From the sequence record PZ452579.1: DNA of 64,000 nucleotides; one strand, given 5' to 3'. The position numbers and the translations under genes are program-made. The DNA comes from a phage. Under the pieces are notes generated by a model that was not told the DNA's origin, searched no databases, and saw only the letters and a list, made by a program, of their open reading frames with translations. Below are positions 1,497 to 60,982 of the stretch, one piece after another (within the stretch, counting starts at the first letter, position 1; each line of letters begins with the position of its first letter).

Positions 1497-3011
1497 ATGA
1501 CTGACATTAAAGTACATTTTCATGATTTTAGTCACGTGCGCATTGAATGTGACGAAAGTACGTTTTACGAACTTCGTGACTTTTTTAGCTTTGAAGCTGA
1601 CGGGTATAAATTTAACCCAAAATATCGCTATGGGCAATGGGATGGTAGAATTCGACTTTTAGATTACAACCGTTTGTTACCATATGGACTTGTAGGACAA
1701 ATAAAAAAGTTCTGTAACAATATGAGTTATTCTGTATGGATTGACCCTAAAATCTTTGAGACTGAAGACCTTACCAGGGAAGATTTTGACGCATGGCTTT
1801 CTAAACAAGAAATTTATTCAGGCAACGCCAAAATCGAACCACATTGGTATCAAAAAGATGCAGTATATGAAGGACTAGTTAATCGTCGTCGAATTTTAAA
1901 CCTTCCGACATCAGCAGGTAAATCACTAATCCAAGCACTTTTAGCTCGGTATTATCTAGAGAACTATGAAGGTAAAATTCTCATTATCGTCCCTACAACA
2001 GCATTGACAACCCAGATGGCTAATGATTTTGTTGATTATCGCTTGTTTAGTCATTCGATGATTAAGAAAATTGGCGGTGGTGCTGATAAAGCGGACAAAT
2101 CTAAAAGCGATGCTCCAATTATTGTTGGCACATGGCAAACGGTAGTTAAGCAGCCTAAAGAATGGTTCTCTCAGTTCGGTATGATGATGAACGATGAATG
2201 CCACTTAGCAACAGGCAAAAGTATTTCTTCAATCATCTCAGGATTAAATAATTGCATGTTTAAATTCGGTTTATCTGGCTCATTAAGAGACGGAAAAGCC
2301 AATGTAATGCAGTATGTAGGCATGTTCGGCGAAATCTTCCGTCCTGTTAGCACGTCTAAATTAATGGAAGACGGACAGGTAACTGAGCTTAAGATTAATA
2401 GTATTTTCCTTCGTTATCCGGACGAATTCACCATTAAATTAAAAGGTAAAACATACCAAGAAGAAGTTAAAATTATTACCGGACTAAAACGTCGTACAAA
2501 GTGGATTGCTCAACTTTCGGTCAAATTGGCTAAGAAAGACGAGAACGCCTTTGTAATGTTTAAACACGTTACACACGGTAAAGAAATATTTGAAGCTATT
2601 AAAGAGCTTGGATATGAAAAAGTTTATTACGTATCAGGTGAAGTTGATACTGAAACACGTAACGCGCTTAAAGTCATGGCAGAAAATTGTAAAGGCATTA
2701 TTATTGTTGCATCATATGGAGTATTCTCTACTGGTATTTCAGTCAAGAATCTTCATCATGTTATTTTTGCCCATGGTGTTAAATCAAAAATTATCGTACT
2801 TCAAACCGTAGGTCGTGTGCTTCGTAAGCATGGTTCTAAAGCTGTTGCTACAGTTTGGGATCTCATAGATGACGCAGGTGTAAAACCTAAATCATTAAAT
2901 ACTAAAAAGAAGTATACTCATCTTAATTACTTGTTAAAACACGGTATTGATCGTATCCAACGTTACGCTGATGAGAAATTTAACTATGTAATGAAAACAA
3001 TTAATTTATAA
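1497..3011 (+). CDS. uvsW: UvsW recombination/repair DNA helicase
   Basis: 504 aa; near-identical over long stretches to remembered T4 UvsW (MTDIKVHFHDFSHVRI..., PTSAGKS Walker A, DECH box). Confidence 0.97.
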   Translation: MTDIKVHFHDFSHVRIECDESTFYELRDFFSFEADGYKFNPKYRYGQWDGRIRLLDYNRLLPYGLVGQIKKFCNNMSYSVWIDPKIFETEDLTREDFDAWLSKQEIYSGNAKIEPHWYQKDAVYEGLVNRRRILNLPTSAGKSLIQALLARYYLENYEGKILIIVPTTALTTQMANDFVDYRLFSHSMIKKIGGGADKADKSKSDAPIIVGTWQTVVKQPKEWFSQFGMMMNDECHLATGKSISSIISGLNNCMFKFGLSGSLRDGKANVMQYVGMFGEIFRPVSTSKLMEDGQVTELKINSIFLRYPDEFTIKLKGKTYQEEVKIITGLKRRTKWIAQLSVKLAKKDENAFVMFKHVTHGKEIFEAIKELGYEKVYYVSGEVDTETRNALKVMAENCKGIIIVASYGVFSTGISVKNLHHVIFAHGVKSKIIVLQTVGRVLRKHGSKAVATVWDLIDDAGVKPKSLNTKKKYTHLNYLLKHGIDRIQRYADEKFNYVMKTINL

Positions 3012-3023
3012 GGGCTTCGGCCC
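3012..3023 (+). other. Intercistronic GGGC-UUCG-GCCC tetraloop hairpin between uvsW and uvsW.1
   Basis: gggcttcggccc directly after uvsW stop; no U-tract; RBS of next gene follows. Confidence 0.55.
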
Positions 3024-3036
3024 TTAGGAGATAAAA

Positions 3037-14171: not shown

Positions 14172-14191
14172 AAAAAGAGCCCGAAGGCTCT
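14172..14191 (-). terminator. UUCG-tetraloop hairpin terminator (minus strand)
   Basis: Minus RNA AGAGCC-UUCG-GGCUCU followed by UUUU. Confidence 0.55.
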
Positions 14192-14379
14192 TAATCCACA
14201 ATCCGGAGCAAAGTACGATAAACTTCAAAATTAGGGCCTTTTTCGTACTTATCAAAATTGTCCATAAAAATATGATAGGAATCGTTATTAGGAAAATCTA
14301 ATACAATTTGGGAACAAGAGGTGGAAACATCACCACCATCTTTATTAGCGACAACTACTGTTTCTAAATAAGCTTTCAT
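14191..14379 (-). CDS. Hypothetical small protein between ligase and alt
   Basis: 62-aa ORF; stop overlaps ligase start region. Confidence 0.5.
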   Translation of the reverse strand: MKAYLETVVVANKDGGDVSTSCSQIVLDFPNNDSYHIFMDNFDKYEKGPNFEVYRTLLRIVD

Positions 14380-17418: not shown

Positions 17419-17603
17419 TTTAAACCTTTAATAGGAGATAGTTCTTTACCCATACGTATGTCAGAAGTCCCATCAACCCATTGAACAGCATACGCTTCAT
17501 TGATAATTCCAGCGGCGGTTTTAAATTCATGGAGAACTTTAAAAATCATCCCAGGGATTCCAACACCTTTTAATTGGACTGTTTGTGCTATTAAAAATTT
17601 CAT
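17406..17603 (-). CDS. Hypothetical small protein
   Basis: 65-aa ORF with early promoter upstream. Confidence 0.5.
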   Translation of the reverse strand: MKFLIAQTVQLKGVGIPGMIFKVLHEFKTAAGIINEAYAVQWVDGTSDIRMGKELSPIKGLKCLS

Positions 17604-17627
17604 ATTTTTCCACTTACTAAAGAAATC

Positions 17628-17658
17628 ATTATACTCTAATCCGTCCTTGGATGTGAAC
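17628..17658 (-). promoter_or_regulatory. T4-type early promoter (minus): -10 TATAAT, -35 GTTCACA
   Basis: + strand attata - 17 nt - tgtgaac; member of the ccttgg subfamily. Confidence 0.45.
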
Positions 17659-18272
17659 TACTTAACGAAATTAATTTCTACCGGATGAACAACAGGTTGA
17701 GCAGTGATATATTGAGTAATTGCTTTCATGACTAGAGCTTCAGAACCAGGATTTTTCTCAACGAATTCACATGCTTGGTTATGAGCTTCAAGTTCACTTA
17801 GTAAACCACTTCGTTGGCATCCACGGTCTTGAGTACCCTGTTCAGATAAAAAGACGACGTTGTATTTTTCATCGTCATACGGTTTAGACGGTTGAGCAAA
17901 TGTTCCTTTACTTCCAAAAGGAGAGTTATGACGCCACATCACGCCGTGAGGAGTTTCAACCTTCGTATATTCATGCGGGCCATTTTTCTTAGTTTCTTGA
18001 TGTGGAACTTCGTAGACCTTAGGGTTAGGACATTCAATAAAATGCTCATCTAAATCAGTCGAGAATATTAAAGAAAAACAATTACTGAATTTACCAACAC
18101 CTGCCTGATAAATTTTACCTTCAGAAGTTCTAATTTCACAAACCGAGCCGGCATCAGTAACTTCTAAAACTTCAAAAGGCTCAATAAGGTCATATGAGAA
18201 CATGTTTTTAAGGCGTGGAGTAATATCCCCATTTTTAAAATTCATTTTATAAAAAGTATTAACTTTAAACAT
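17658..18272 (-). CDS. Hypothetical protein (30.x region)
   Basis: 204-aa ORF. Confidence 0.6.
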   Translation of the reverse strand: MFKVNTFYKMNFKNGDITPRLKNMFSYDLIEPFEVLEVTDAGSVCEIRTSEGKIYQAGVGKFSNCFSLIFSTDLDEHFIECPNPKVYEVPHQETKKNGPHEYTKVETPHGVMWRHNSPFGSKGTFAQPSKPYDDEKYNVVFLSEQGTQDRGCQRSGLLSELEAHNQACEFVEKNPGSEALVMKAITQYITAQPVVHPVEINFVK

Positions 18273-18284
18273 AATTTCCTCAGT

Positions 18285-18300
18285 GGGAGCCGAAGCTCCC
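18285..18300 (-). other. Intercistronic UUCG-tetraloop hairpin
   Basis: gggagc cgaa gctccc between two co-oriented ORFs, directly upstream of RBS. Confidence 0.5.
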
Positions 18301-18307
18301 AGTTAAA

Positions 18308-19217: not shown

Positions 19218-19241
19218 ACAAAAGGGAGACCGAAGTCTCCC
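19218..19241 (-). terminator. UUCG-tetraloop hairpin terminator (minus)
   Basis: gggagac cgaa gtctccc; minus RNA hairpin followed by U-rich tract; identical stem-loop to the gene 32 terminator. Confidence 0.55.
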
Positions 19242-19246
19242 TAAAA

Positions 19247-20792: not shown

Positions 20793-21363
20793 AAAAGTTT
20801 CGGATTTGTTCCCAATTCAGAGAACGAAGATTATTACGAGAGTACTGAATTACTTCAATACCAGCTTGTTTTAGAATGTCAGCCCAATTTTCAGGAGATC
20901 TGTCATATAATTCTGCGTATACAACCTTTTTAATACCTGACTGTGTAATAGCTTTAGTGCAATCAGGACATGGAGAAAGCGTCGTATATAACGTAGCACC
21001 TTCAATAGAATTACCTTTACGAGCTGCAAACAAAATTGCATTCAATTCTGCATGGATTTCATTATTAGCAGACCATGCACTATGAGCGGCCCGATGTTCT
21101 TTAGCCAAAACAAAATTATCTGCCCGTCCAAATGCTGTAGTGCCTTCTTTATGACCAGCAACGATGACCGGGCTTGGTTTATTCTTCAACCAGCCGTTTT
21201 CGGATGCATGTTCGCAACAGTTAACACCACCTGAAGGAGAGCCATTATAACCTGTAGAAATAATGCGTCCATCTTTTTCAATGACCGCACCTACTTTCCA
21301 TGAACAACATTTTGATTCTTGAGAAATCAAATAAGCAATTTGAAGATATGTGCTAGCTTTCAT
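20782..21363 (-). CDS. cd: dCMP deaminase
   Basis: 193 aa; zinc deaminase motifs HAELNAI and PCPDCTKAI; synteny. Confidence 0.93.
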   Translation of the reverse strand: MKASTYLQIAYLISQESKCCSWKVGAVIEKDGRIISTGYNGSPSGGVNCCEHASENGWLKNKPSPVIVAGHKEGTTAFGRADNFVLAKEHRAAHSAWSANNEIHAELNAILFAARKGNSIEGATLYTTLSPCPDCTKAITQSGIKKVVYAELYDRSPENWADILKQAGIEVIQYSRNNLRSLNWEQIRNFCGE

Positions 21364-21599
21364 TATAGTGTTCCGTATACGCGAGTTGCTTCAACTAAAC
21401 CGTCACTGCCTAATTTAAGGCTAGTAATCTGGTCACCATCTTTAGGATTAACAATTATGAGAAAAGAACGTGGAGATTCTTGAATAACTCGTAATGTTGC
21501 ATCCTGGAAACGTTCAGACACTTTATTTATGAGTGCTTGAGCAAATTCTTTTACTTTAATCTGAAATTCGTGCACTGTAATTGGGTTTTCACTTAGCAT
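21363..21599 (-). CDS. Hypothetical protein (cd.x)
   Basis: 78-aa ORF with GAGG RBS and early promoter upstream. Confidence 0.6.
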   Translation of the reverse strand: MLSENPITVHEFQIKVKEFAQALINKVSERFQDATLRVIQESPRSFLIIVNPKDGDQITSLKLGSDGLVEATRVYGTL

Positions 21600-31515: not shown

Positions 31516-31863
31516 TCAATACGGTTTAGCATCAAATTTTCTTTCAATTTCAGGCGTGAAATATAATTCTTTACCACGCTTAGAAAAGCGACCGATAATA
31601 TGATAATTATTTTCGTCGAACGTGATATTACCGAGGTCCATAGCTTTTAACCAATCATCAATACTTCTGTGCAGTTTTATATCAAAATTCCAGTATTGAG
31701 AACTATTACCGCGGATACTACAAGCAGATTCAGTAAAACAACTACTATAAATCTTGTCTTTAGGAACTACTAATTGATAAACACCTTTAATAAACTGAGG
31801 ACCTTGCCACTTTGGCTGTTTCGCATCTTCTTCTAATAGAATAGGGTAATAATTAAAATTCAT
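31516..31863 (-). CDS. Hypothetical protein inserted between frd and td
   Basis: 115-aa ORF; in T4 frd and td abut, so this is extra relative to T4. Confidence 0.6.
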   Translation of the reverse strand: MNFNYYPILLEEDAKQPKWQGPQFIKGVYQLVVPKDKIYSSCFTESACSIRGNSSQYWNFDIKLHRSIDDWLKAMDLGNITFDENNYHIIGRFSKRGKELYFTPEIERKFDAKPY

Positions 31864-33482: not shown

Positions 33483-33500
33483 GGGAGACCGAAGTCTCCC
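33483..33500 (-). terminator. Gene 32 transcription terminator (UUCG-tetraloop hairpin plus U-tract)
   Basis: gggagac cgaa gtctccc 7 nt after the gene 32 stop; minus RNA has UUCG loop and downstream U-rich tract. Confidence 0.7.
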
Positions 33501-40647: not shown

Positions 40648-41772
40648 ATGGAAAAATTTATGGCAAGGTTTGGACAGGGATACGTCCAAACGCCGTTTTT
40701 ATCGGAAAGCAATTCAGTTAGATTTAAGCTAAGTATAGCGGGTTCATGCCCGCTTTCAACAACTAATCCGTATATTTTGTTCCAAAACGAGCCTTTAGGG
40801 TTGCAGTCTTTTGGTATTGGACTAAATGTTAGGGTAATAAATCCGGAAAATGGAACTATAGTTGATAGTAAATTATACAATTTTGCGCCTACAAATAATG
40901 CAACTTCAGCTGCATTTATTTCGTTTGTTAATACATACGCAGATAATTTCATTTTCGCATTTATTTCTAATAACAAATTTAATTTGCCGCCAGAAATAAT
41001 TGAATGGTTTAAAGCTGCTGGGAGTTCAGTTATACCGTCAATTGAAGTTGCTAGTCTTGTTGATATTTCATATTCAGCGTTTTATGTTTCAGGTAAAAAT
41101 ACTATTGCATTAGAACACATAAAATACAGTAATAAGAAAACAATTTCTGATTACGCAACTCCATTAGATATTGTATATGACTCTATTGCTGATATAGGTG
41201 CTACCGGCTATCCTAGACGTACATATGAAGCTCTAGAAACGTTTTTATCTCCTGTTGGAGGAACTAACAATGAAATAAAAAGGATGCCTACATCATCCCT
41301 TGTTACTCCTATCGCAAACTATGGATTAAAACCTACAGATTTTCTTTATTTGAAATTTCAATTAATGGCTGATGAAGAATTATTAGAGGAAGGAACCACA
41401 AGACTTTCAATTCGTTTCTTTAAGACTCCATCTAGCTCTCCTATATCATCTAAAGATATAAACTTTGATGGAACTGCCGGGGAGTGGAAGTTATATGAAG
41501 AATACGTTGAAATACCAGCTGAAGCTGATGGCTTTACAGTATATTGTTACCGTACGGCCTCAGTCGGTCAAGGTGGACTAAGAAATGTTATTTTCACTGA
41601 AGTATCATGTAACGGAAGTATAGCAAAACCCGCCGAGTTTGGTATAAACGGTATTCGTGTTAATTACATTGATGAATCATTAACCGGTAATGATATAATG
41701 GACTTGCCTACTCAGTTATCTAACGACACAGGTAAGGTATTTGGGCAGGAATTTAAAGAGTACACAGAATAA
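40648..41772 (+). CDS. 35: Long tail fiber hinge protein gp35
   Basis: 374 aa (T4 372 aa); synteny. Confidence 0.88.
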   Translation: MEKFMARFGQGYVQTPFLSESNSVRFKLSIAGSCPLSTTNPYILFQNEPLGLQSFGIGLNVRVINPENGTIVDSKLYNFAPTNNATSAAFISFVNTYADNFIFAFISNNKFNLPPEIIEWFKAAGSSVIPSIEVASLVDISYSAFYVSGKNTIALEHIKYSNKKTISDYATPLDIVYDSIADIGATGYPRRTYEALETFLSPVGGTNNEIKRMPTSSLVTPIANYGLKPTDFLYLKFQLMADEELLEEGTTRLSIRFFKTPSSSPISSKDINFDGTAGEWKLYEEYVEIPAEADGFTVYCYRTASVGQGGLRNVIFTEVSCNGSIAKPAEFGINGIRVNYIDESLTGNDIMDLPTQLSNDTGKVFGQEFKEYTE

Positions 41773-41773
41773 A

Positions 41774-41793
41774 GGAGACTTCGGTCTCCTTTT
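41774..41793 (+). terminator. UUCG-tetraloop hairpin terminator after gene 35 (plus strand)
   Basis: ggagac ttcg gtctcc followed by tttt. Confidence 0.65.
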
Positions 41794-42496: not shown

Positions 42497-45400
42497 ATGG
42501 CTACTTTAAAACAAATACAATTTAAAAGAAGCAAAACTGCAGGAGCACGTCCTGCCGCTTCAGTATTAGCCGAAGGTGAATTGGCTATAAACTTAAAAGA
42601 CCGTGTACTTTTTACTAAAGATGACCAAGGAAATATTATTGATCTGGGTTTTGCTAAAGGCGGTAGTATTGACGGGAATGTTATTCATACAGGCAATTAT
42701 AACCAAACTGGCGATTATACTTTAAATGGCGTCTTCACCCAGACTGGTAATTTTAATTTAACTGGTATTGCTCGAGTAACTCGCGATATTATTGCCGCTG
42801 GGCAGATTATGACTGAAGGCGGAGAACTTATTACAAAAAGTTCAGGTACAGCACATGTTCGTTTTCATGATTCGGCTGATCGTGAACGTGGCATTATTTA
42901 TGCACCGGCTAATGATGGATTAACTACGCAAGTAGTTAATATCCGCGTTAAAGACTACGCCGCTGGTGATGAAAGCACCTATGCATTTTCGGGCAGTGGA
43001 CTATTTACTTCACCTGAAGTGTCAGCATGGAAATCTATGTCAACTCCTCAGATTTTGACAAATAGAGTTATTACTAATAATAAATCTACGAGCGATTATG
43101 ACATTTATTCTATGGCAGACAACGTTCCATTGTCTGAAAGCACTACTGCTATTAATCATCTCCGTGTTATGCGCAATGCTGTAGGCGCTGGTGTATTCCA
43201 TGAAGTTAAAGATAATGATGGAATAACTTGGTATACTGGAGATGGCTTAGACACTTATCTTTGGTCGTTTACCTGGTCCGGTGGATTGAAAGCAGGCCAT
43301 TCTATTTCTGTTGGTACTCCTGGTGGCAATAAAGGATACTCTGAATTAGGGACTGCTTCAATTTCTCTTGGCGATAATGATACCGGGCTAAAATGGCATC
43401 AGGATGGATATTATTTCAGCGTCAATAATGGAACGAAAACATTTTTATTTAGTCCCAACGAAACAACTAGCCTAAGAAAATTTGTAGCTGGATATTCTAC
43501 TACCGGAACCGATTTAACTACTCCTCCAACTGAAAACTATGCTTTGGCCACTGTTGTTACTTACCATGATAATAACGCGTTTGGAGACGGTCAGACTCTT
43601 TTAGGATATTATCAAGGCGGTAACTATCATCATTATTTTCGCGGTAAGGGTACTACAAACATTAATACTCACGGCGGTTTGTTAGTTACTCCAGGTAATA
43701 TTGATGTTATTGGCGGTTCTGTTAATATCGATGGTAGAAATAATGCTTCTACACTGATGTTTAGAGGTAACACAACTGGTAGTAGTTCAGTTGATAATAT
43801 GACAATTTCTGTGTGGGGTAATACGTTTACTAATCCTAGTGTAGGTGATCGTAAAAACGTCATGGAAATTTCTGATGCAACTGGTTGGATGAGCTATATT
43901 CAAAGACTTACAACAGGTGAAGTAGAAATGAACGTTAACGGTTCATTTGAATCATCTGGTGTTACTGCTGGAAATAGAGGAGTTCACACAACAGGTGAAA
44001 TTTCATCTGGAGCAGTGAATGCGCTTCGCATTTGGAATGCAGATTATGGAGCTATTTTTAGACGTTCAGAAGGAAGTCTTCATATTATTCCAACTGCTTA
44101 TGGTGAAGGCAAAAATGGTGATATCGGTCCACTTCGCCCGTTTAGTATGGCTTTAGATACCGGTAAAGTTACTATTCCAGATTTACAATCAAGTTACAAT
44201 ACGTTCGCTGCGAACGGCTATATTAAATTTGTTGGTCATGGAGCGGGTGCCGGCGGTTATGACATTCAATATGCTCAAGCGGCTCCTATTTTCCAGGAAA
44301 TTGATGACGATGCTGTAAGCAAATATTATCCGATTGTTAAGCAGAAGTTTTTAAACGGTAAAGCAGTTTGGTCTTTAGGTACTGAAATTAATTCGGGTAC
44401 ATTCGTTATTCATCATCTGAAAGAAGATGGTTCACAAGGACATACATCTCGTTTTAATCAAGACGGTACAGTTAATTTCCCTGATAATGTTCAGGTTGGT
44501 GGTGGTGAAGCTACTATTGCTCGCAACGGTAATATTTTCTCTGATATTTGGAAAACGTTTACTTCTGCAGGTGATGTAACTAATACCCATGACGCTATTG
44601 CTACTCGTGTTGCCAAAGAAGGTGATACGATGACCGGGCGCTTAACTCTTAATGCAAACTCGGATGCTATTGTTATTAACAGTGCTGCAACCGAATCTGG
44701 TTATGTGAAAGGACAAAAAGCAGGCGTTGATAACTGGTATGTAGGTAATGGTGGGGCTGATAATGCTATATCGTTTTATAGTTTCCGAACTAATTCAGGC
44801 ATATATGTTAATAATGGCGGTGATATTGCTTTAAACCCGGAAGGGTCTGCTACTTTTAATTTTAATAGGGATCGAATTTATATAAATGGGTCAGTCTGGA
44901 CCGCACACCAGGCTGGCGATTGGGGAAATCAATGGCGCCAGGAAGCTCCTGTATTTGTGGATTTTGGTAATGTCGGTAATGATAGTTATTATCCTATTAT
45001 TAAAGGAAAATCTGGTATTACTAATGAAGGTTATATATCTGGTGTAGATTTTGGTATGCGCCGTATCACTAATACATGGGCACAAGGTATTATTCGTGTA
45101 GGCAACCAGGAAGGCGATTCTGACCCACAAGCGATCTATGAATTCCACCACAATGGAGTTATGTATGTTCCTAACATGGTTAAAACCGGAGCAAGATTAT
45201 CGGCTGGCGGTGGTGACCCGGTGTGGACTGGACCATGTCTTGTTATTGGTGATAATGATACCGGATTAGTTCATGGTGGTGATGGGCGAATTAACATGGT
45301 TGCAAATGGAGTGCATATTGCTTCGTGGTCTTCATCTTATCATTCTCATCCTGGCCTTTGGGATTCAAACGGTGCTTTGTGGACAGAAGTTGGCAAAGCA

Positions 45401-45808
45401 GTTATTTCTCATGGTCATTTAGTTCAGGCGAATGACAACTATTCAACATATGTCCGCGATGTTTATGTCCGCTCTGATATTCGTGTTAAAAAGAACCTCG
45501 TTAAATTTGAAAATGCTTCTGAGAAGCTTTCTAAAATTAACGGTTACACTTATATACAGAAGCGAGGCCTAGATGAAGAAGGTAATCAGAAATGGGAACC
45601 AAACGCTGGGTTAATTGCTCAAGAAGTTCAAGCTATTTTACCTGAATTAGTTGAAGGTGATCAGGATGGTGAAGCTTTACTTCGTTTGAACTATAACGGT
45701 GTAATTGGTTTAAATACAGCTGCAATCAATGAGCATACTGCAGAAATTGCAGAACTTAAGTCAGAGATTGAAGAGCTTAAAAAATTAGTTAAATCATTGT
45801 TAAAATAA
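42497..45808 (+). CDS. 37: Long tail fiber distal subunit gp37 with C-terminal intramolecular chaperone domain
   Basis: 1103 aa; C-terminal ~110 aa carry an S|DxRxK autoproteolysis motif ([10 protein letters not shown]) and coiled-coil tail, as in T2-type gp37. Confidence 0.9.
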
Positions 45809-45813
45809 TAAGA

Positions 45814-45827
45814 GGGGCTTCGGCCCC
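45814..45827 (+). other. Intercistronic GGGGC-UUCG-GCCCC hairpin between genes 37 and 38
   Basis: ggggcttcggcccc directly before the GGAGG RBS of gene 38. Confidence 0.55.
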
Positions 45828-45839
45828 TTGGAGGTTTAT

Positions 45840-46613
45840 ATGGCAGTTGAAGGACCGTGGGTAGGATGGTCTGCAAGGGTACAGACTGGAGATCCTTGGA
45901 TGGGTGGTGCCGCACAGAGATTGAGAATGGGAATTCCGTTTTGGATGAGTAATATGATAGGTCGATCTGTTGAAGTAATTCACACACTTGGAGCAGACCA
46001 TAACTTCAATGGTCAATGGTTCCGAGATAGATGTTTTGAGGCAGGTAGTGCACCTATAGTGTTTAATATCACTGGAAATTTAGTATCATATAGTAAAGAT
46101 GTTCCATTATTCTTTATGTATGGCGATACACCAAATGAATATGTTACTTTGAATATTCACGGTGGAGTTCATATGTGGGGACGAGGTGGTAACGGTACTG
46201 TAAACGGAAACCCAGGCACAAATGGCGGCGATGTAATCCAAAATGATATCGGCGGAAGACTTCGTATTTGGAACTATGGCGTTATTGCATCAGGCGGCGG
46301 CGGTGGTGGTGCAATGTCGTTACAGAATAGCTGGGCGCCAAATGCTACAGCAGGTGGCGGTGGTGGTAGACCATTTGGCCTCGGCGGAGGCGGCGTTAAT
46401 TGGCCGGGTGGTAATGCTAGTTATGACGCCCCGGGCGGTGCCGGTTACACTTCCCAATTCGGCGGAGGCAATGGCGGTGATGCTGGAGGTCGTGGCGGAG
46501 ACGGATGGGGTAATCACTTATCTAGATCTGGCGGTGGTGCTCCTGGCAGAGCAGTATTCGGAAGTTCACCGTCATGGGGTGCTACAGGCACAATCTACGG
46601 CTCCTGGATTTAA
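45840..46613 (+). CDS. 38: gp38 receptor-recognizing adhesin (T2/T6 type) with glycine-rich motifs
   Basis: 257 aa from ATG at 45840 (GGAGG RBS); conserved N-terminus ([35 protein letters not shown]) and poly-Gly islands separating variable segments. Confidence 0.9.
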
Positions 46614-50170: not shown

Positions 50171-50194
50171 GCACAAAAGGGAGCCGAAGCTCCC
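50171..50194 (-). terminator. UUCG-tetraloop hairpin terminator downstream of gene 52
   Basis: gggagc cgaa gctccc; minus RNA hairpin followed by UUUUGUGC. Confidence 0.55.
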
Positions 50195-50270
50195 TAATCA
50201 TGTTTGTCCAACCAATACAGCCAAATCACTAGTGCAGCTATTGCACTGAGAAATCCTAAGGCTAGGGCAC

Positions 50271-54068: not shown

Positions 54069-55004
54069 TTATTCTGCAAATAATTCAGTAACGTCTGAAA
54101 TTACTTCGTAACGACAAGTACGCATCTTAGCATCACCATAGTCAACTGGGATAGACACAACATCACGTGGATGAACTTTAACCTTAACAACTTTATCTGA
54201 GCTAGAACCAAAGTAACGAATATATGATTTAGCACAAACATGTAGACCACGTGAGCAGGTTTGAGTATCATCATCGTTAACACGAGTACGAGGCATTGAA
54301 ACAACTTTACCAGGCGAGTTATCAAATGTGCCGCTATAGCAATCTAAATAGTCTTTACGAACTACTTTCCACGCATAGAAATGCCCATCTTCAGTGATTT
54401 CAATATCATTTGCAACCAAGAAGTCGAATAAACGTTGTACAGCTTTTTCGCTTGGGTTTTCTAACAGGTTTTCAAGGAACGGCAGATAGAATTTAAAGTC
54501 TTCGCCTTTTTCCATAGAATCAATAATACGATTAACCAGTCCTGAACGAATTTCTATACCTTGATAAAATAAACTACCACCTTCAATAGTAACATTACCG
54601 TCAACAAACTTAGTAATAGCTTTCTTGATGTTAATAAGTTCGACAGCTTTACTAAGGTTTCCTGCGACCAAATTAGCTTTAATTTCTTCAAAATTTGCAT
54701 GACTTGATGGGGTCGCATTGTATGCTACGCGTCCTTCAATGATTGAAATAAATTTAGATGACGCGTTCCATACGATTTCTGGACGATGACCGGTAATAAT
54801 AGGTTCATTATTTTCTGGGACCTGTTCTTCGTCTTCAAATTCAGCTGCTTTCTCTTCATCTTTAAAATTCTTAACAATCTTACGAAGAGTATCTGTTGAA
54901 ATGTCGAAGTAATCGGCAATTTCTTTACGAGTCCATTTGCCCGATTCAACCAGGCCGTAAGCTTCTAACTGTTCTTCTTGGGACAAGCATTTGATATTGT
55001 ACAT
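54069..55004 (-). CDS. rIIB: rIIB membrane-associated protein
   Basis: 311 aa; strong identity to T4 rIIB (MYNIKCL..., C-terminal PRTRVNDDDTQTCSRGLHVCAKSYIRYFGSSSD). Confidence 0.95.
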   Translation of the reverse strand: MYNIKCLSQEEQLEAYGLVESGKWTRKEIADYFDISTDTLRKIVKNFKDEEKAAEFEDEEQVPENNEPIITGHRPEIVWNASSKFISIIEGRVAYNATPSSHANFEEIKANLVAGNLSKAVELINIKKAITKFVDGNVTIEGGSLFYQGIEIRSGLVNRIIDSMEKGEDFKFYLPFLENLLENPSEKAVQRLFDFLVANDIEITEDGHFYAWKVVRKDYLDCYSGTFDNSPGKVVSMPRTRVNDDDTQTCSRGLHVCAKSYIRYFGSSSDKVVKVKVHPRDVVSIPVDYGDAKMRTCRYEVISDVTELFAE

Positions 55005-55013
55005 AATGTTTCC

Positions 55014-57227
55014 TTATTTGGCCGCTTCCACGGCCTTCATGAATTTAACGATTTGAGCGACTTGTTCTTTAGAAAGAGTACCACGTCGTCCCATGTAGTC
55101 TGACACAATATGATAATTGGTTTCGAATTCAATAACCATTTTATCATCATTATCGTAAGCATTATCTTTAAGCTTATCGAAAATTTTAGCACACAATTCT
55201 AACTTCCTGTTCAGGTCTCTGTTATCAGCACCTGCGAATCGATTCCATCCCCAACGATTATTTACTGTTGAAAGTTTTGCAAAATCTTTACTTATTTCTT
55301 TGTTCTTAGAGCTAAAATACTTACTAAGGAAGTTAAGCTCTTCATTACGAGTAATATGATTCAAATAAGGCTGTGCTCTACGACTTGGTGATACATACTC
55401 ATCATAATCCACTTTATCAATTAGCGTAATATAGTCATTAATTGATTTTTCGAACAAGCATTCTACTTCACCAAGTTTACGAACTTTCTTAGCAATCTGT
55501 GGACGGACTACAGTGAACTCTTTAATACCTGACAAATCAGCGATGCGGGTCAAGAAATTAGAATCATAGTTCAACCAACCTTTATCTGCGTCAAGACATT
55601 CAGCGTTAGAACGATTACGAATTACAACATAACCTTGAATCTCATCAGCTTCACTCGCTGGAATAAAGAGATCTTCTGATACCCAAACATCGTTTTCATT
55701 CTTAAAGAACCGATGAGCGCTTGGGGATTTAGGACGAGGCTGCGATGAACGTTCTTTAACTTCAATCCATGGTTTAACTAATGCAAGAATTTCAGAGGTC
55801 TTATAAAATTTAAGGCTATCACCAGCGAAAATAACCTTTAATCGTTCCAGAAGTTTCATTGCAACTTCATCTTCCGGGTTAATGAATAATACGCTACTAC
55901 CCAGTCCGGAAGGAACCTTATCAACGAGTGTTGATGCATCCGTGGAAGTCAAAGCATCATTCAGAGCACGCATCATTGGTACTCGGCCTTTCACATCGTC
56001 AATAACAATATCAATATGCTTACGACTAATACCTAGCAGGCTATTAATTGAAATAGTTGCAGACGAGCTTCCGCTTTCACGAATACGACGAAGTCGTGGG
56101 TCTGAAACGATATCGTATACAACACCAAGGTTGCACCATTCGGGACCCATTTTAAACCGTTTGTACAACTCAGAATAAGTTAGCTGTTCTTTAGAATATT
56201 TCAGTGATTCAATATTAGAACCAGCTTTTTCCATGTATTTACGAGCAGAGTAACCAAGAGAATCGATTTCACGGAATACATGACGTGGATATTCACAATC
56301 AATCCATTTCTTAGAATCTTCAGCAAATAATTTTGCATCAATTTCTGCAACACGTTTATGGATATTTGCTACTGTACGTTTATCAAATGACAATGCTTCA
56401 CGAGACGGAGCTACATCTAGTTCACCCATAGGGAATTTAATATAAGCTGTAGTGCATCGCGTCATCATCCATGTTTGTTCTTTAATAACACTTCCGATTG
56501 GATATACAATACCACCATAAACAGCCATGATATTACCACGTTCACCCCATGGAGCTTCCTTGGCTAAATAAACATCATCGAATTCCGGGAAGTATTTGAT
56601 ATCTTTAACACCACGAACTTCTGCAATATCGCCGAGAGGACGCATAACATAAGCAATTTCGGATGCGAACTTTTCAAAATCTTCTGGGTTAACAGGCACA
56701 ACTACTTCAACGCCGGTTCGGTCATCAGGACCCATCTTATCTACGAAGGTTGGCTTAATTTGTGGACCTGTGTCATCTTGGTAGATTACGTAACCACGAA
56801 CTTCACCGTTGTGATAAGACGTAAGGTTAAATGTATCGGTATATGCTAGTGGAGCTTTAGAGCCGAGTCCGAATCCACCAATGAAATCGTTACTCGATGT
56901 TTTAGTTGAAGCAAAATATGAATTATAGATTCCTGGCTCTTCGTCATTACCTCGAATAGTGAAATCACTCATACCAGGACCAAAGTCTCGAACTACAAAA
57001 CGTGGGTCTAAACGACCTGGAGCCTGAACAATAAACTTATCAGTGCAACCATTAAGAATTTGTCCATCGATACAGTTTGTGATTAATTCACGTACACAAG
57101 CCAATTCTTTGTTTGTATAAAGGTCATTAGACAAAATCTTATAAACTTTGCTATTGCCTTGAATAGTGAATGCTGTGCTCTTACCGCCTGAACCAATAAT
57201 CGTTTCTTTAGCCGTTTCAATAATCAT
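55014..57227 (-). CDS. rIIA: rIIA protein
   Basis: 737 aa (T4 725 aa); N-terminal MIIETAKETI...; synteny with rIIB. Confidence 0.93.
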   Translation of the reverse strand: MIIETAKETIIGSGGKSTAFTIQGNSKVYKILSNDLYTNKELACVRELITNCIDGQILNGCTDKFIVQAPGRLDPRFVVRDFGPGMSDFTIRGNDEEPGIYNSYFASTKTSSNDFIGGFGLGSKAPLAYTDTFNLTSYHNGEVRGYVIYQDDTGPQIKPTFVDKMGPDDRTGVEVVVPVNPEDFEKFASEIAYVMRPLGDIAEVRGVKDIKYFPEFDDVYLAKEAPWGERGNIMAVYGGIVYPIGSVIKEQTWMMTRCTTAYIKFPMGELDVAPSREALSFDKRTVANIHKRVAEIDAKLFAEDSKKWIDCEYPRHVFREIDSLGYSARKYMEKAGSNIESLKYSKEQLTYSELYKRFKMGPEWCNLGVVYDIVSDPRLRRIRESGSSSATISINSLLGISRKHIDIVIDDVKGRVPMMRALNDALTSTDASTLVDKVPSGLGSSVLFINPEDEVAMKLLERLKVIFAGDSLKFYKTSEILALVKPWIEVKERSSQPRPKSPSAHRFFKNENDVWVSEDLFIPASEADEIQGYVVIRNRSNAECLDADKGWLNYDSNFLTRIADLSGIKEFTVVRPQIAKKVRKLGEVECLFEKSINDYITLIDKVDYDEYVSPSRRAQPYLNHITRNEELNFLSKYFSSKNKEISKDFAKLSTVNNRWGWNRFAGADNRDLNRKLELCAKIFDKLKDNAYDNDDKMVIEFETNYHIVSDYMGRRGTLSKEQVAQIVKFMKAVEAAK

Positions 57228-57239
57228 ATTTTTCTCTCA

Positions 57240-57440
57240 TCACAAGTTACGTTTAAAAATTTCTGCTACTTCAAGAAGTTCTTCTTTAGTAGCTGTATCG
57301 GTTTGTATTTTATATCGAATTTCTTTAAAGCGTTCTTTAAAGGACTCTGCTGATTCGATATCAAAAAATCTTTGGATAAGCCGGAATTCCCGGAGCACTG
57401 CTTTATCAAAAAGTTCCAAGTCCACGTTATATGTTCTCAT
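57240..57440 (-). CDS. rIIA.1: rIIA.1 small protein
   Basis: 66-aa ORF immediately upstream of rIIA. Confidence 0.7.
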   Translation of the reverse strand: MRTYNVDLELFDKAVLREFRLIQRFFDIESAESFKERFKEIRYKIQTDTATKEELLEVAEIFKRNL

Positions 57441-57458
57441 AATATTCTCTTCAGTAGA

Positions 57459-57527
57459 TTCCTAGGGCACTATTACTAAAGACCATATAATCTATCATCT
57501 TATGTGTAATAGTGCCTCAGGCTATTC
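57459..57527. repeat. Inverted repeat (about 12-bp arms, ~30-nt spacer) between rIIA.1 and the glycosyltransferase-like gene
   Basis: gggcactattac ... gtaatagtgcc with a TATAAT-containing spacer. Confidence 0.5.
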
Positions 57528-57532
57528 AGGAT

Positions 57533-58633
57533 TTACGCTGTGAAGATTTTATCCCACATCGCAACAACTGCATCTCGGTTATACTTCTTCCATACTGCTT
57601 CAGCACGTTTAACTCGAGCTTCGTACGTGTCAGTGAATTCTAATACAGCTTTTGTGTAAAGCGCAACTACTTCTTTCTTAGGAGTAGAGGAATCAATTTC
57701 TACACGCACAGTATCTGGGTCGTATTCAAATGTCGCATGAGGATAATCCTTAAAAACTAACTGGATTACAGGGACACCTTTAGAGATGGCTTCAATAGAA
57801 CTATTCTCTACCGTACCTGTGTCAGGACACGTATTAATAAGTGCTTTAGCTGTTTTAAGACGTTCCATGATTTCACTGTGTGGAGCATCAATAATAACAG
57901 GATACTTAGCCGGTGGTGCCCATTTGCTTGGACAATAACCAATACCATTTTCGCCTAGTGCTTTAATCGCTTCAAGAGCAACATCAGTACGACGCATTTT
58001 AGTGTCATAACGTTGTGCACTAATAATCAGATCAGTCGCCGGAAGAACTTCAGGTTTCTCATTCAAACAAATAACCGGATAATCTTCGGCTTCAAACAAC
58101 GGATTTGCTCGCCAATAATCATAATCAATTTTGTCAGTCAGACCTGAAGTCATATGACAATATTTGCGTTCAAATTCACGGAAGGCTTTAGTAGGAGCAT
58201 AACTCTTACCACCATTCTTATGAATTTGAATAGTCTGGTCCCAAATTTGAACAATGCCACGAGATACCGGTTCAAATGGTGTTGCCATAAAATTCTTATG
58301 AACTTTAGAGAGACCTGCGTCTTTAATTGCCTGAACGGTTAGTTTAGTCGGTTCCATAGTAACAACAAAATCGTATTCATGGATGCCGGCTAGTTCAACA
58401 ATCTTACGAGCCATAGTATAACTCATACCTAGACTGAATTTAGTCAGATGACCAACAGGATGATGATTAACTTTCCAATCACCAAATGTGTCATTATCAA
58501 AACCGATATAATCAATATCGGCACCAATAGAAACTAAATATTTCAACACATTTAAATGTACTGCTTCAAGACCACCTTGTACACGGTCAGGATTAAATGG
58601 GACTGCACGAGATGGGATAAACATAACTTTCAT
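57533..58633 (-). CDS. Putative GT-B fold glycosyltransferase (GT4-like), inserted between rIIA.1 and gene 39
   Basis: 366 aa; N-terminal MKVMFIPSRAVPFNPDRVQGGLE and C-terminal ENSSIEAISKGVPVIQL resembling GT4 donor-binding motifs; fold assignment is motif-based only. Confidence 0.55.
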   Translation of the reverse strand: MKVMFIPSRAVPFNPDRVQGGLEAVHLNVLKYLVSIGADIDYIGFDNDTFGDWKVNHHPVGHLTKFSLGMSYTMARKIVELAGIHEYDFVVTMEPTKLTVQAIKDAGLSKVHKNFMATPFEPVSRGIVQIWDQTIQIHKNGGKSYAPTKAFREFERKYCHMTSGLTDKIDYDYWRANPLFEAEDYPVICLNEKPEVLPATDLIISAQRYDTKMRRTDVALEAIKALGENGIGYCPSKWAPPAKYPVIIDAPHSEIMERLKTAKALINTCPDTGTVENSSIEAISKGVPVIQLVFKDYPHATFEYDPDTVRVEIDSSTPKKEVVALYTKAVLEFTDTYEARVKRAEAVWKKYNRDAVVAMWDKIFTA

Positions 58634-58659
58634 AATTAAGCCTTATTAAAATTAAAATG

Positions 58660-58677
58660 AAGCTCCCGAAGGAGCTT
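58660..58677 (-). other. UUCG-tetraloop hairpin overlapping the gene 39 stop codon
   Basis: aagctcc cgaa ggagctt. Confidence 0.5.
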
Positions 58678-60493
58678 AGGACATCCATTCTTTACGAAGT
58701 TCTGAATCATCACCCATCAACATTTCAAAGAGTTCTTTCCAATTTTCAGGAAGTTTAACTACGTCGTACACAGGGTTCTGAATCATTTCACGATATTCTG
58801 ACTTTTCAAGGGAGCCTAATCCCTTGATGTATCGAATACTATGCTTAGGAAGCGTATCTTTAACTTCTTCATACTCAGCTACAGTATAAAACCATTTTTG
58901 AGTTTTGCCAATTTGTGCAATAATTACAGGTGTTTTAACAAAGCGAATACGTCCTTGTTCAAACAATTCAGGCCAATTACTAAAGAAAGCAAGCAAAGCC
59001 GGATAGATACTTCCAAGACCGTCATGATCGGCATCGGTCATAATTGCAATATTACGATAGTTCGTATTCTCTGCCTTTTCACCAAGAATAAGACCCGTGA
59101 TAGCACAGATATCAAAGAGCTCTTTGTTCTTCATCATATCAGCATATGACATACCCCAGCTATTCATCACCTTACCACGTAATGGGAATCCACCGTGTAG
59201 TTCACGGTCACGAACATCAATGAGATAACCAATTGCCGAATCACCTTCTGTTAAGAACAATGTCGTATCTGCATCTTTACCACATTGGTTAGCTTTAATA
59301 TGCTTATGAACCTTAGCTTTAGTTGCCTTTTTAGCTGCTTTAGTTTCTGCAGCCTTTTCTGCCGCCAATTTACGAGCTAATGCGGCTTCAACAATAGGCA
59401 TAATCAAGGCTTCGTTTTTAAGAAGTGCCTGAGCAATTTTCTTAGCATCTAATTGGATATGATTACGAATATCACCATACGTTGACGTTAAACGTTCTTT
59501 AGTCTGAGAATCAAAACGCATGTTGCTCATGTCTCTAATAAACATCAACATTGTGAGACATTCTTTAACACGAGCTTTAGTGACTTCAATACCCTTATAT
59601 TTCTTTTTAATACCGGGCAAAAGATGTTCGCAGATATCATCCATTACACATTCAACATGATGACCACCATTTTTAGTATGGATGTTATTCACATAAGTTA
59701 AATGACGGAAGCCATCTGGTGATGTTGTGAATGCTATAGAGACTTTATCATTTTCTTGAATGATGTTATCTTCACCAAATTGTTTAGCAAATCGTTTAAA
59801 ATTACCATCAACCTTTTTACCATTAAATGTGAACTTGATATCAGGATAAACGACTGCCAATGTTTGAAGTCGGTCTAAAGTAATATCTAAATAAATTTGA
59901 GATAAATTATGCTCTTCAAATGAAGTGAAATCAGGAGTGAAGATTACTTTAGTGCCTTTACCTTTAGATTTCTTAGAAGACCATGATTTGTTTTCCATTC
60001 CGTTTGAACAGTTAACAGTGATTTCATTTTCGCCATCTGACGTGATGCCTGTAAACAACGTAGAGAAGATATTAGTTAAACTACTCCCGACGCCGTTCAT
60101 ACCACCAGTCTTGCGTTCAGAGTCATCACCAAAGTTACCACCGGCCTTTGGAATAGTCCAGGCTGCTACAGGCCCAGGAATTTGTTCACCTGTTTGGTCG
60201 GTAACTAAACCTTGAGGAATACCACGTCCGTTATCTTCCACCGAAACTTGATTATTTTTAATTTGCACATCAATTTTATTTGCAAACTTAAATGACGTAC
60301 GAATAGCTTCATCAACCGAGTTGTCAATAATCTCATCGATTAATTTAACCAGACCAGGAACATATTCAACTTGTTGATATTTACCAAACAAAAAACGCTC
60401 ATGTGCTTCTTTAGCAGAAGAACCAATATACATACCACTACGTTTCTTAATATGTTCTACATCTGATAATACCTTAATTTCATTTTTAATCAT
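58676..60493 (-). CDS. 39: DNA topoisomerase II large subunit gp39, uninterrupted GyrB-like form
   Basis: 605 aa; GHKL ATPase motif IIDNSVDEA, TOPRIM EGDSA and DADHDG; full length in one ORF with no gene 60 or bypass element. Confidence 0.95.
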   Translation of the reverse strand: MIKNEIKVLSDVEHIKKRSGMYIGSSAKEAHERFLFGKYQQVEYVPGLVKLIDEIIDNSVDEAIRTSFKFANKIDVQIKNNQVSVEDNGRGIPQGLVTDQTGEQIPGPVAAWTIPKAGGNFGDDSERKTGGMNGVGSSLTNIFSTLFTGITSDGENEITVNCSNGMENKSWSSKKSKGKGTKVIFTPDFTSFEEHNLSQIYLDITLDRLQTLAVVYPDIKFTFNGKKVDGNFKRFAKQFGEDNIIQENDKVSIAFTTSPDGFRHLTYVNNIHTKNGGHHVECVMDDICEHLLPGIKKKYKGIEVTKARVKECLTMLMFIRDMSNMRFDSQTKERLTSTYGDIRNHIQLDAKKIAQALLKNEALIMPIVEAALARKLAAEKAAETKAAKKATKAKVHKHIKANQCGKDADTTLFLTEGDSAIGYLIDVRDRELHGGFPLRGKVMNSWGMSYADMMKNKELFDICAITGLILGEKAENTNYRNIAIMTDADHDGLGSIYPALLAFFSNWPELFEQGRIRFVKTPVIIAQIGKTQKWFYTVAEYEEVKDTLPKHSIRYIKGLGSLEKSEYREMIQNPVYDVVKLPENWKELFEMLMGDDSELRKEWMS

Positions 60494-60540: not shown

Positions 60541-60556
60541 AAAAGGGCCGAAGCCC
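60541..60556 (-). terminator. UUCG-tetraloop hairpin terminator upstream of the gene 39 promoter
   Basis: gggc cgaa gccc; minus RNA hairpin followed by UUUU. Confidence 0.55.
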
Positions 60557-60982
60557 TTATTTAAATTTAATTTTCTGAAGTGCATCAATTGCAGCCAAAC
60601 GCCCTTGTTCACTTTTAACTGTAATGACTACATCGCCTGATACGATCACCGAACCATCAACAAATTCTATAGAGCCTTTTTTGAAATCGACAGCTGTATC
60701 TGGTTCCGGAACTTCTTCAAAGAATTTAAATTCTGCACCATAAAGCAGAATATCACCTTGCATACTATGAATAGTTCGGCCGTAATCGCCTACGGCTTCT
60801 ACAGCAATAATCGAAACGCCGTAACCAATCATCTCTTCCACAATAAAATCTTTGGACAATAAAGTAGTATGCAGATTAGTATTAAGACGTTTACCAGTCG
60901 TATTAAGAATTCTCAAGAAATTATCTTCCTGTCCTTTGATAATACGATATTTCTTACCAACTTCAAAACCTTTAAAAGCCAT
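60557..60982 (-). CDS. Hypothetical protein (39.1/39.2 position)
   Basis: 141-aa ORF. Confidence 0.6.
   Translation of the reverse strand: MAFKGFEVGKKYRIIKGQEDNFLRILNTTGKRLNTNLHTTLLSKDFIVEEMIGYGVSIIAVEAVGDYGRTIHSMQGDILLYGAEFKFFEEVPEPDTAVDFKKGSIEFVDGSVIVSGDVVITVKSEQGRLAAIDALQKIKFK

Follow-up and report, generated by a model that had tools for sequence, protein, structure and literature searches.

The gene named here aat, on the minus strand at positions 57533-58633 of the window (the whole 64,000-nucleotide stretch of phage DNA analysed, record PZ452579.1), most probably encodes a chain-extending DNA arabinosyltransferase that adds a second arabinose to 5-hydroxycytosine and serves a counter-defence role. 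The gene has already been described, its structure has been solved and its function has been assigned, by a proposal in 2018 and a re-assignment in 2025-26; the reading given here is correct but known. The open reading frame, its conservation, the GT-B fold, the near-identity to a UDP-bound crystal structure and the phyletic pattern were established here, whereas the second-sugar step, the use of DNA as acceptor and of arabinose as donor, and the part played against host defences are deduced from published work and homology. The value of the present analysis lies in a clean annotation and in the correction of a common mislabel of aat.

The aat gene and its product

The aat open reading frame is intact, begins with ATG and encodes 366 amino acids. 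The N-terminus of the product, MKVMFIPS...GGLE, and a C-terminal segment containing SIEAISKGVPVIQL had been quoted in the initial annotation, and both were found in the sequence. The ORF call together with homology identifies the gene as the orthologue of RB69 ORF003c (gp3), a GT-B DNA arabinosyltransferase with a proposed second-arabinose step. A Shine-Dalgarno-like AAGG, read from the sequence and presumed to be functional, lies at 58641-58644 on the minus strand, 7 nt upstream of the ATG. The upstream neighbour, gene 39 (58676-60493, minus strand), encodes the large subunit of topoisomerase II and was identified by its ORF and the annotation of Bas46, HY126 and ime09; the downstream neighbour, rIIA.1 (57240-57440, minus strand; 66 aa), was identified by its ORF and the annotation of relatives. 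The ORFs of rIIA (55014-57227) and rIIB (54069-55004) follow, and all of these genes share the strand of aat. Gene 39 and aat are separated by a spacer of 42 nt, and the stop codon of aat and the start of rIIA.1 by one of 92 nt; a search of the coding strand of both spacers gave no sigma-70-type promoter for aat or rIIA.1. Since the 42-nt spacer before aat contains a ribosome-binding site but nothing recognisable as a promoter, aat is probably co-transcribed with gene 39 and rIIA, which share its strand. The last 14 kb of the window are 96-97.5% identical to genomes of the RB69-like genus Mosigvirus (PHB12, Bas47 AlbertHofmann, Bas46 ChristianSchoenbein and others), and local BLAST against Bas46 covered most of the window at 93-98% identity.

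Over all 366 residues the aat protein is 99% identical to the chains of PDB entries 9IQZ and 9IR0, released on 2025-07-16, which are 'phage HY126 glycosyltransferase' in the apo form and with UDP, respectively. The crystallised sequence differs from the window protein by four substitutions (N55T, G164A, I231V and S315F), none of which falls in a family-invariant column, and the same four distinguishing residues are carried by the copy in the HY126 genome. This GenBank copy is 98% identical to the aat protein and likewise lies between gene 39 and rIIA.1. Equal length and synteny also make aat the orthologue of RB69 ORF003c/gp3 and of Bas46 bas46_0103, and the Bas46 gene has 98.3% DNA identity to the window copy. 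The name 'Aat' reportedly stands for the enzymes that put on the second and third arabinose, and the 'Aat' deleted in Bas46 is presumably the orthologue of the window gene.

Residues 1-366 matched PHROG 8302, a family of 'unknown function' (E 4e-223). No Pfam family was found for the protein at E <= 10, nor was any NCBIfam family. Among PDB sequences, the family-profile HMM matched 9IQZ/9IR0 and nothing else at E <= 10, and a single-sequence search likewise gave no further family. The AlphaFold2 model was of modest quality (pLDDT 60.7, pTM 0.56), a consequence of the shallow alignment afforded by few homologues (5 clusters, 12 representatives), and was used for fold-level matching only. Its best matches were 9IR0 and 9IQZ (TM 0.71); the next matches, with E values of 1e-8 to 1e-6, were to GT-B enzymes only (PimA, tetrahydrobiopterin glucosyltransferase, BshA, WaaG and GT1 enzymes). 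The initial annotation had called the product a GT-B/GT4-like glycosyltransferase and had named structure prediction as a check; the fold matches obtained, and the crystallisation of a 99%-identical protein with UDP, bear out the call. The protein has the GT-B fold of two Rossmann-like domains with an inter-domain cleft, an assignment carried mainly by the 99%-identical crystal structure, and from the same database structure it is taken to bind a UDP-linked donor.

The relation to GT4 was less direct. One protein, P0015, matched the family profile marginally, with E 1.7e-4 and a full-length hhalign probability of 94.6%. It contains the Pfam domain Glyco_transf_4 (PF13439; 31.9 bits, cutoff 28.5) and so provides a weak, indirect sequence bridge between the aat family and GT4. 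In the alignment to P0015, GGLE of aat corresponds to the Gly-Gly loop of GT4 enzymes, R208 and R214 to the basic pair after the first strand of the C-terminal domain, and the invariant E281 followed by AISKGVPVI to the second Glu and the G-x-P-V segment. The two signatures singled out in the initial annotation, GGLE and E-A-x-x-x-G-x-P-V-I, are thus aligned with the Gly-Gly loop and second-Glu region of a GT4-positive protein. Where the first Glu of EX7E would stand, the aat family has an invariant glycine (G273), with an invariant glutamate (E276) three residues later. On two tests of GT4 membership, the profile threshold and the EX7E motif, the aat protein fell outside, so that it appears to resemble a GT4-type GT-B enzyme while standing outside the criteria for GT4.

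The family is small. A word-indexed search of 5.8 billion proteins gave 5 clusters, and an exhaustive profile search of 1.84 billion proteins gave 12 representatives, 8 of them with E < 1e-30; judged by these searches, the family appears to be essentially restricted to phages. The gene itself was found at 90-99% DNA identity in 164 phage records. Among the best 30 of these 164, it was called 'hypothetical protein' or left unannotated in 26, 'DNA alpha-glucosyltransferase' in one (HX01) and 'ATP-binding protein' in one; in Bas46 and Bas47 it is labelled 'putative hmC-arabinosyltransferase'. The pN/pS ratio was 0.13 against Bas46 and 0.09 against HY126. The gene is under purifying selection and is fixed in Mosigvirus.

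The junction between rIIA.1 and gene 39

The initial annotation described gene 39 as uninterrupted and knew of no glycosyltransferase at this locus in T4, and was right on both points. Gene 39 of the window is unsplit and, at 605 aa, equal in length to the fused 'gp60plus39' of phage ime09. The further suggestion that aat takes the slot of gene 60 plus mobA was mistaken, since gene 60 of T4 encodes the C-terminal portion of the gene 39 topoisomerase subunit, with 60.1/mobA located within the split gene (T4 annotation); the slot itself is empty in T4. Its counterpart in T4 and ime09 is a spacer of ~55 nt, from the topoisomerase stop to rIIA.1, with an early promoter (GTTTAC-N17-TATAAT), and on reading the sequences no similarity was seen between this promoter-bearing spacer and the two spacers flanking aat. 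In a distant BLAST comparison, Tequatroviruses matched both flanks of a 2.7-kb aat query over a span of 1527 bp, compared with 2701 bp in the window, which makes aat a clean insertion of ~1.17 kb. In other genera the rIIA.1-39 junction holds unrelated small ORFs, and phiC120 has an added homing endonuclease. The junction is plastic, and nothing in it marks aat as a mobile cassette.

Two RNA elements flank the gene, as the initial annotation had noted. Upstream of aat, a UUCG hairpin with a 7-bp stem (AAGCUCC-UUCG-GGAGCUU) followed by the U-rich CAUUUUAAUU lies at 58660-58677 on the minus strand and overlaps the stop codon of gene 39. This was the sole terminator-like site found by a terminator scan of 57100-58900, and it is predicted to be a terminator-like or mRNA-stabilising intercistronic element. 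It is kept in Bas46 and in HY126, where the loop is UUCU. Hairpins of this kind are common in the window: 19 with a UUCG loop and a stem of at least 5 bp were counted, compared with 3.6 in shuffled sequences, and they are mostly G+C-rich and located at gene ends. The class of UUCG intercistronic hairpins has long been familiar from T4. Downstream of aat, the reported 12-bp inverted repeat is present and is better described as an imperfect repeat at 57461-57521 (minus strand; repeat scan) with 16-nt arms (57461-57476 and 57506-57521) around a 29-nt loop, the arms being 88% complementary with an 11-bp perfect core, GGCACTATTAC. Folded as RNA, the aat/rIIA.1 spacer forms a stable stem-loop (-28.6 kcal/mol; z = -4.6 relative to shuffled sequences), and the inverted repeat is nearly identical in Bas46 and HY126.

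From these two elements the initial annotation had suggested a cassette, that is, that aat is a mobile unit bounded by the hairpin and the inverted repeat. The clean insertion of ~1.17 kb relative to the Tequatroviruses would fit such a unit, as would the differing small genes or homing endonuclease at the junction in other phages and the perfect 503-bp tandem duplication, taking in the spacer, in JK45. The hairpin proposed as one boundary is, however, of a common class, in that UUCG hairpins mark gene ends throughout the genome at more than the expected frequency (19 against 3.6). Moreover, the flanks of aat are unrelated to each other and each is unique in the window, and no recombinase or homing endonuclease adjoins the gene here. 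The gene also occurs at this site, nearly always with 95-99% DNA identity, in the 153 phage records that cover 80% or more of the locus query, and it is fixed in the genus with pN/pS of ~0.1. The mobile cassette was therefore rejected as very unlikely.

DNA arabinosylation and the proposed second-sugar step

Arabinose was detected in RB69 DNA by Thomas et al. 2018 (PMC6024577), where ORF003c (366 aa) was proposed as the arabinosyltransferase from HHpred and Phyre2 predictions. Studies of 2025-26 identified the gp42 homologue as a flavin-dependent 5-hydroxy-dCMP synthase and placed the sugar, arabinofuranose, on the C5 oxygen in an ether linkage (PMC13326640, PMC13390438). RB69 DNA contains beta-D-Araf-(1->3)-alpha-D-Araf-5-hydroxy-dC together with the mono form (PMC13326640), the mono and di forms stand at 1:4 in Mosigvirus NP (PMC13390438), and the DNA of Bas46 and Bas47 is doubly arabinosylated (PMC12923530). 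In PMC13326640, the proposed 'beta-arabinosyltransferase 2' is RB69p003 (gp3), and the proposed first transferase is gp46:47, encoded in the arabinose cluster. The position of the Mosigvirus gene between rIIA.1 and gene 39 is given in PMC13390438 as well. The idea, put forward in the initial annotation, of an extra DNA sugar transferase with an anti-restriction role is in line with this literature, which assigns the RB69 orthologue to DNA arabinosylation. The same annotation had pointed to a hydroxymethylcytosine (hmC) pathway; cd, td, frd and nrdAB are indeed located in the window (confirmed through the Bas46 annotation), but hmC is wrong for the genus, in which the gp42 homologue makes 5-hydroxy-dCMP.

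The remainder of the pathway is probably encoded beyond the window. In Bas46, genes 0140-0148, between uvsX and the DNA polymerase gene, comprise the 5-hydroxy-dCMP synthase, UDP-arabinose genes and the first transferase. This cluster lies ~20 kb from aat, corresponding to the region beyond the end of the window, and neither agt nor bgt is annotated in Bas46.

The distributions of the two transferases differ. In tblastn searches the aat protein of the window matched 212 phage records, with one copy of the family in Mosigvirus-type coliphages and Shigella phages and two in Acinetobacter phages; one Tegunavirus was also matched. The first transferase (Bas46_0141) matched 349 phage records of many genera, including 154 Mosigvirus-type records at >=95% identity and, in addition, phages of Klebsiella, Serratia, Enterobacter, Proteus, Yersinia, Edwardsiella and Pectobacterium. 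At E <= 1e-3, the aat family was not found in the Klebsiella, Serratia, Enterobacter and Proteus phages that have the first transferase. The difference between 212 and 349 records suggests that the aat family is an add-on in a subset of arabinosylating phages, and this pattern, with the first transferase far more widespread, makes a chain-extending role the best reading of aat.

Copy number points the same way. The Acinetobacter phage DLP3 has two full-length relatives, gp77 and gp76, with 43% and 41% identity to the aat protein, and no similarity was detectable between the aat protein and the first transferase of that phage, gp79. DLP3, the single Acinetobacter phage with measured DNA sugars, is tri-arabinosylated (PMC13326640), and Thanatos is reported to be mono-arabinosylated. 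Indeed, where the sugars have been measured, 0, 1 or 2 copies of the aat family match the number found: mono in Thanatos, which gave no match, di in the Mosigviruses (RB69, NP, Bas46/47) and tri in DLP3. In vitro, gp76 and gp77 of DLP3 added a third arabinose to RB69 DNA from UDP-Araf and were active only together (PMC13326640). With regard to defence, a passage in PMC13216743, citing Mahler et al. 2025, reports that deletion of Aat made Bas46 sensitive to a plasmid-borne defence.

Three other functions were weighed against this reading. The aat product might be the first transferase, whose arabinose is joined to the modified cytosine itself, as was proposed for ORF003c under the name 'ara-hmC arabinosyltransferase' by Thomas et al. 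2018 (PMC6024577) and as the BASEL annotation of Bas46 and Bas47, 'putative hmC-arabinosyltransferase', also implies. This is improbable: the base is 5-hydroxycytosine and not hmC, it is a different transferase that adjoins the 5-hydroxy-dCMP synthase, present in 349 records that include genera without any aat, and the copy number of the aat family tracks the number of extra sugars. [quoted passage not shown] However, neither T4 enzyme (AGT, BGT) was found at E <= 10 when all PDB sequences were searched with the family-profile HMM, and the DNA of RB69 and NP contains arabinose and neither glucose nor hmC (PMC6024577, PMC13326640, PMC13390438), which leaves this function extremely unlikely.

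We give hardly any credence to the third function, modification of a host surface glycan (LPS or capsule), for instance in superinfection exclusion, instead of DNA. The initial annotation had offered a host glycan-modifying enzyme as an alternative, and the presence of the lipid and LPS glycosyltransferases PimA and WaaG among the nearest folds would agree with it. By contrast, the only relatives by sequence are phage proteins encoded within DNA-arabinosylation clusters, among them two with in vitro activity on DNA. The family is essentially confined to phages (the 12 representatives among 1.84 billion proteins), and aat itself stands amid early DNA-metabolism genes. The alternative was found to be without support.

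The chain-extending model would operate as follows. In Mosigviruses 5-hydroxycytosine replaces cytosine, and the first transferase, from the UDP-arabinose cluster ~20 kb away, would place alpha-arabinofuranose on the 5-oxygen. The aat product, as a soluble, UDP-sugar-dependent GT-B enzyme working on phage DNA after replication, would then add to this sugar a further arabinofuranose, in a linkage reported as beta-1,3, and so produce the di-arabinosyl cytosine that predominates in virion DNA. The thicker sugar coat would protect the DNA against nucleases of the host and further defences directed at DNA.

Two observations complicate this model. If, as presumed, UDP-D-Araf is alpha-linked, a beta-linked product requires inversion; the closest relatives by sequence (GT4) are retaining enzymes, and this counts against the reading. 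Because gp76 and gp77 of DLP3 are needed jointly, one enzyme by itself may be insufficient or may behave differently. The aat enzyme might also be mechanistically unusual for the GT4-like lineage: an inverting beta-1,3-arabinofuranosyltransferase in which the first Glu of EX7E has been lost, which recognises a sugar already present on duplex DNA and may depend on a partner, as gp76 and gp77 do. Separately, the very stable and conserved aat/rIIA.1 stem-loop might be an RNA element that regulates rIIA.1 and rIIA. Both suggestions are doubtful.

Comparison with known systems

Which host defences a phage evades or triggers, among them restriction enzymes, CRISPR-Cas, DNA glycosylases and type IV nucleases, depends in part on how many arabinoses its cytosines carry. 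As a genomic marker, aat and its copy number are therefore of practical use in predicting the DNA chemistry of therapeutic Mosigvirus and Acinetobacter phages and their sensitivity to defences.

Among known systems, the HY126 glycosyltransferase (9IQZ/9IR0) belongs to the same protein family and agrees with the window protein in locus and length, the two being four substitutions apart. RB69 gp3 and the Aat of Bas46 (bas46_0103) and Bas47 show no substantive difference from the window aat, and the 'hmC' in their label is chemically outdated. The DLP3 proteins gp77 and gp76 have all motif residues in common with aat, including GGLE, AQR...R and TGTVEN.S.EAIS.G.PV. In DLP3, however, two paralogues lie inside the arabinose cluster and both are needed for the third sugar, whereas the window phage has a single aat, predicted to lie ~20 kb from the cluster.

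The bacterial GT4 enzymes (PimA, BshA and WaaG; Pfam Glyco_transf_4 and Glycos_transf_1) have in common with aat the GT-B fold and the N-terminal Gly-Gly loop, and also the basic residues after the first strand of the C-terminal domain, the second Glu and G-x-P-V. They differ in that aat has no Pfam match, lacks the first Glu of EX7E, uses DNA as the putative acceptor and has a reported product linkage that is beta. For the T4-type alpha-glucosyltransferase (GT72) and beta-glucosyltransferase (GT63), similarity to aat at the HHpred level is the most that has been reported (PMC6024577).

The second glucose of T2 and T6, as is generally known and also given in PMC13390438, forms gentiobiosyl-hmC. 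The beta-alpha-glucosyltransferase responsible has no detectable sequence relationship to aat, and the sugar is glucose there and arabinofuranose here, the base hmC there and 5-hydroxycytosine here. In function, the T2/T6 enzyme is nevertheless the analogue of the proposed aat enzyme, since it lengthens a sugar already present on a modified cytosine.

The junction between rIIA.1 and gene 39

Comparison by BLAST of the 2.7 kb around aat, the 366-residue GT-B ORF predicted to encode a DNA arabinosyltransferase (57533-58633, minus strand), with phage genomes identified the junction between rIIA.1 and gene 39 as a variable spot across the Tevenvirinae. Nothing was inserted at this position in the Tequatroviruses; WG01, SP18 and Yersinia P8 carried approximately 0.5 kb containing other small ORFs, the Klebsiella phages carried approximately 0.2 kb of additional DNA, and a homing endonuclease was found in phiC120 and vB_EcoM_F1. 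Orthologues of aat were labelled inconsistently in public records, including as 'hypothetical protein', 'DNA alpha-glucosyltransferase', 'ATP-binding protein', 'putative glycosyl transferase' and 'putative hmC-arabinosyltransferase'. A putative distant homologue was present in one Tegunavirus record.

In Shigella phage JK45 (MK962757), a perfect tandem duplication with a period of 503 bp was observed at positions 1307-2109 of the locus excerpt. The duplicated unit comprised the 3′ part of aat and the 92-nt spacer, the counterpart of window positions 57441-57940. The duplication adds an ORF of 136 aa between aat and rIIA.1 and could be of recent origin or an artefact of assembly.

Predicted RNA structures in the aat-rIIA.1 spacer and across the window

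Folding and conservation analyses of the aat-rIIA.1 spacer (57441-57532, minus strand) predicted an RNA stem-loop that is conserved and unusually stable, with a folding energy of -28.6 kcal/mol (z = -4.6 against shuffled sequences); no U-tract follows it. Whereas the spacer at the equivalent position in T4 contains an early promoter, no sigma-70-like promoter was found in this one. The stem-loop may influence how rIIA.1 and rIIA are expressed. Window-wide, 19 hairpins of the stem-UUCG-stem form were detected, compared with 3.6 in shuffled sequences, among them those at 3009-3026, 14175-14192, 18284-18301, 19223-19242, 33483-33500, 41771-41792, 50178-50195 and 60543-60558. About a dozen of the 19 were of the G+C-rich C(UUCG)G type, and U-runs followed several.

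Differences from Bas46

Local BLAST against the annotated Mosigvirus relative Bas46 revealed further differences in gene content. In Bas46, frd and td overlap by 4 bp, whereas in the window they are separated by a 355-bp insertion holding a 115-aa ORF (31516-31863, minus strand) that has no Bas46 counterpart. Conversely, approximately 1.1 kb beside the dCMP deaminase gene (cd) of Bas46, including bas46_0048 ('putative aldolase'), is missing from the window at the cd-gene junction (~21348-21366); this segment is a presence/absence polymorphism within Mosigvirus. Two stretches, 17426-18265 and 44505-45919, had no BLAST match to Bas46. In the first, among small early genes, lies a 204-aa ORF (17658-18272, minus strand). 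The second, judging from the flanking Bas46 matches, would correspond to the region encoding the distal long tail fibre, gp37, and the adhesin gp38, and its divergence from Bas46 likely represents a difference in host range.
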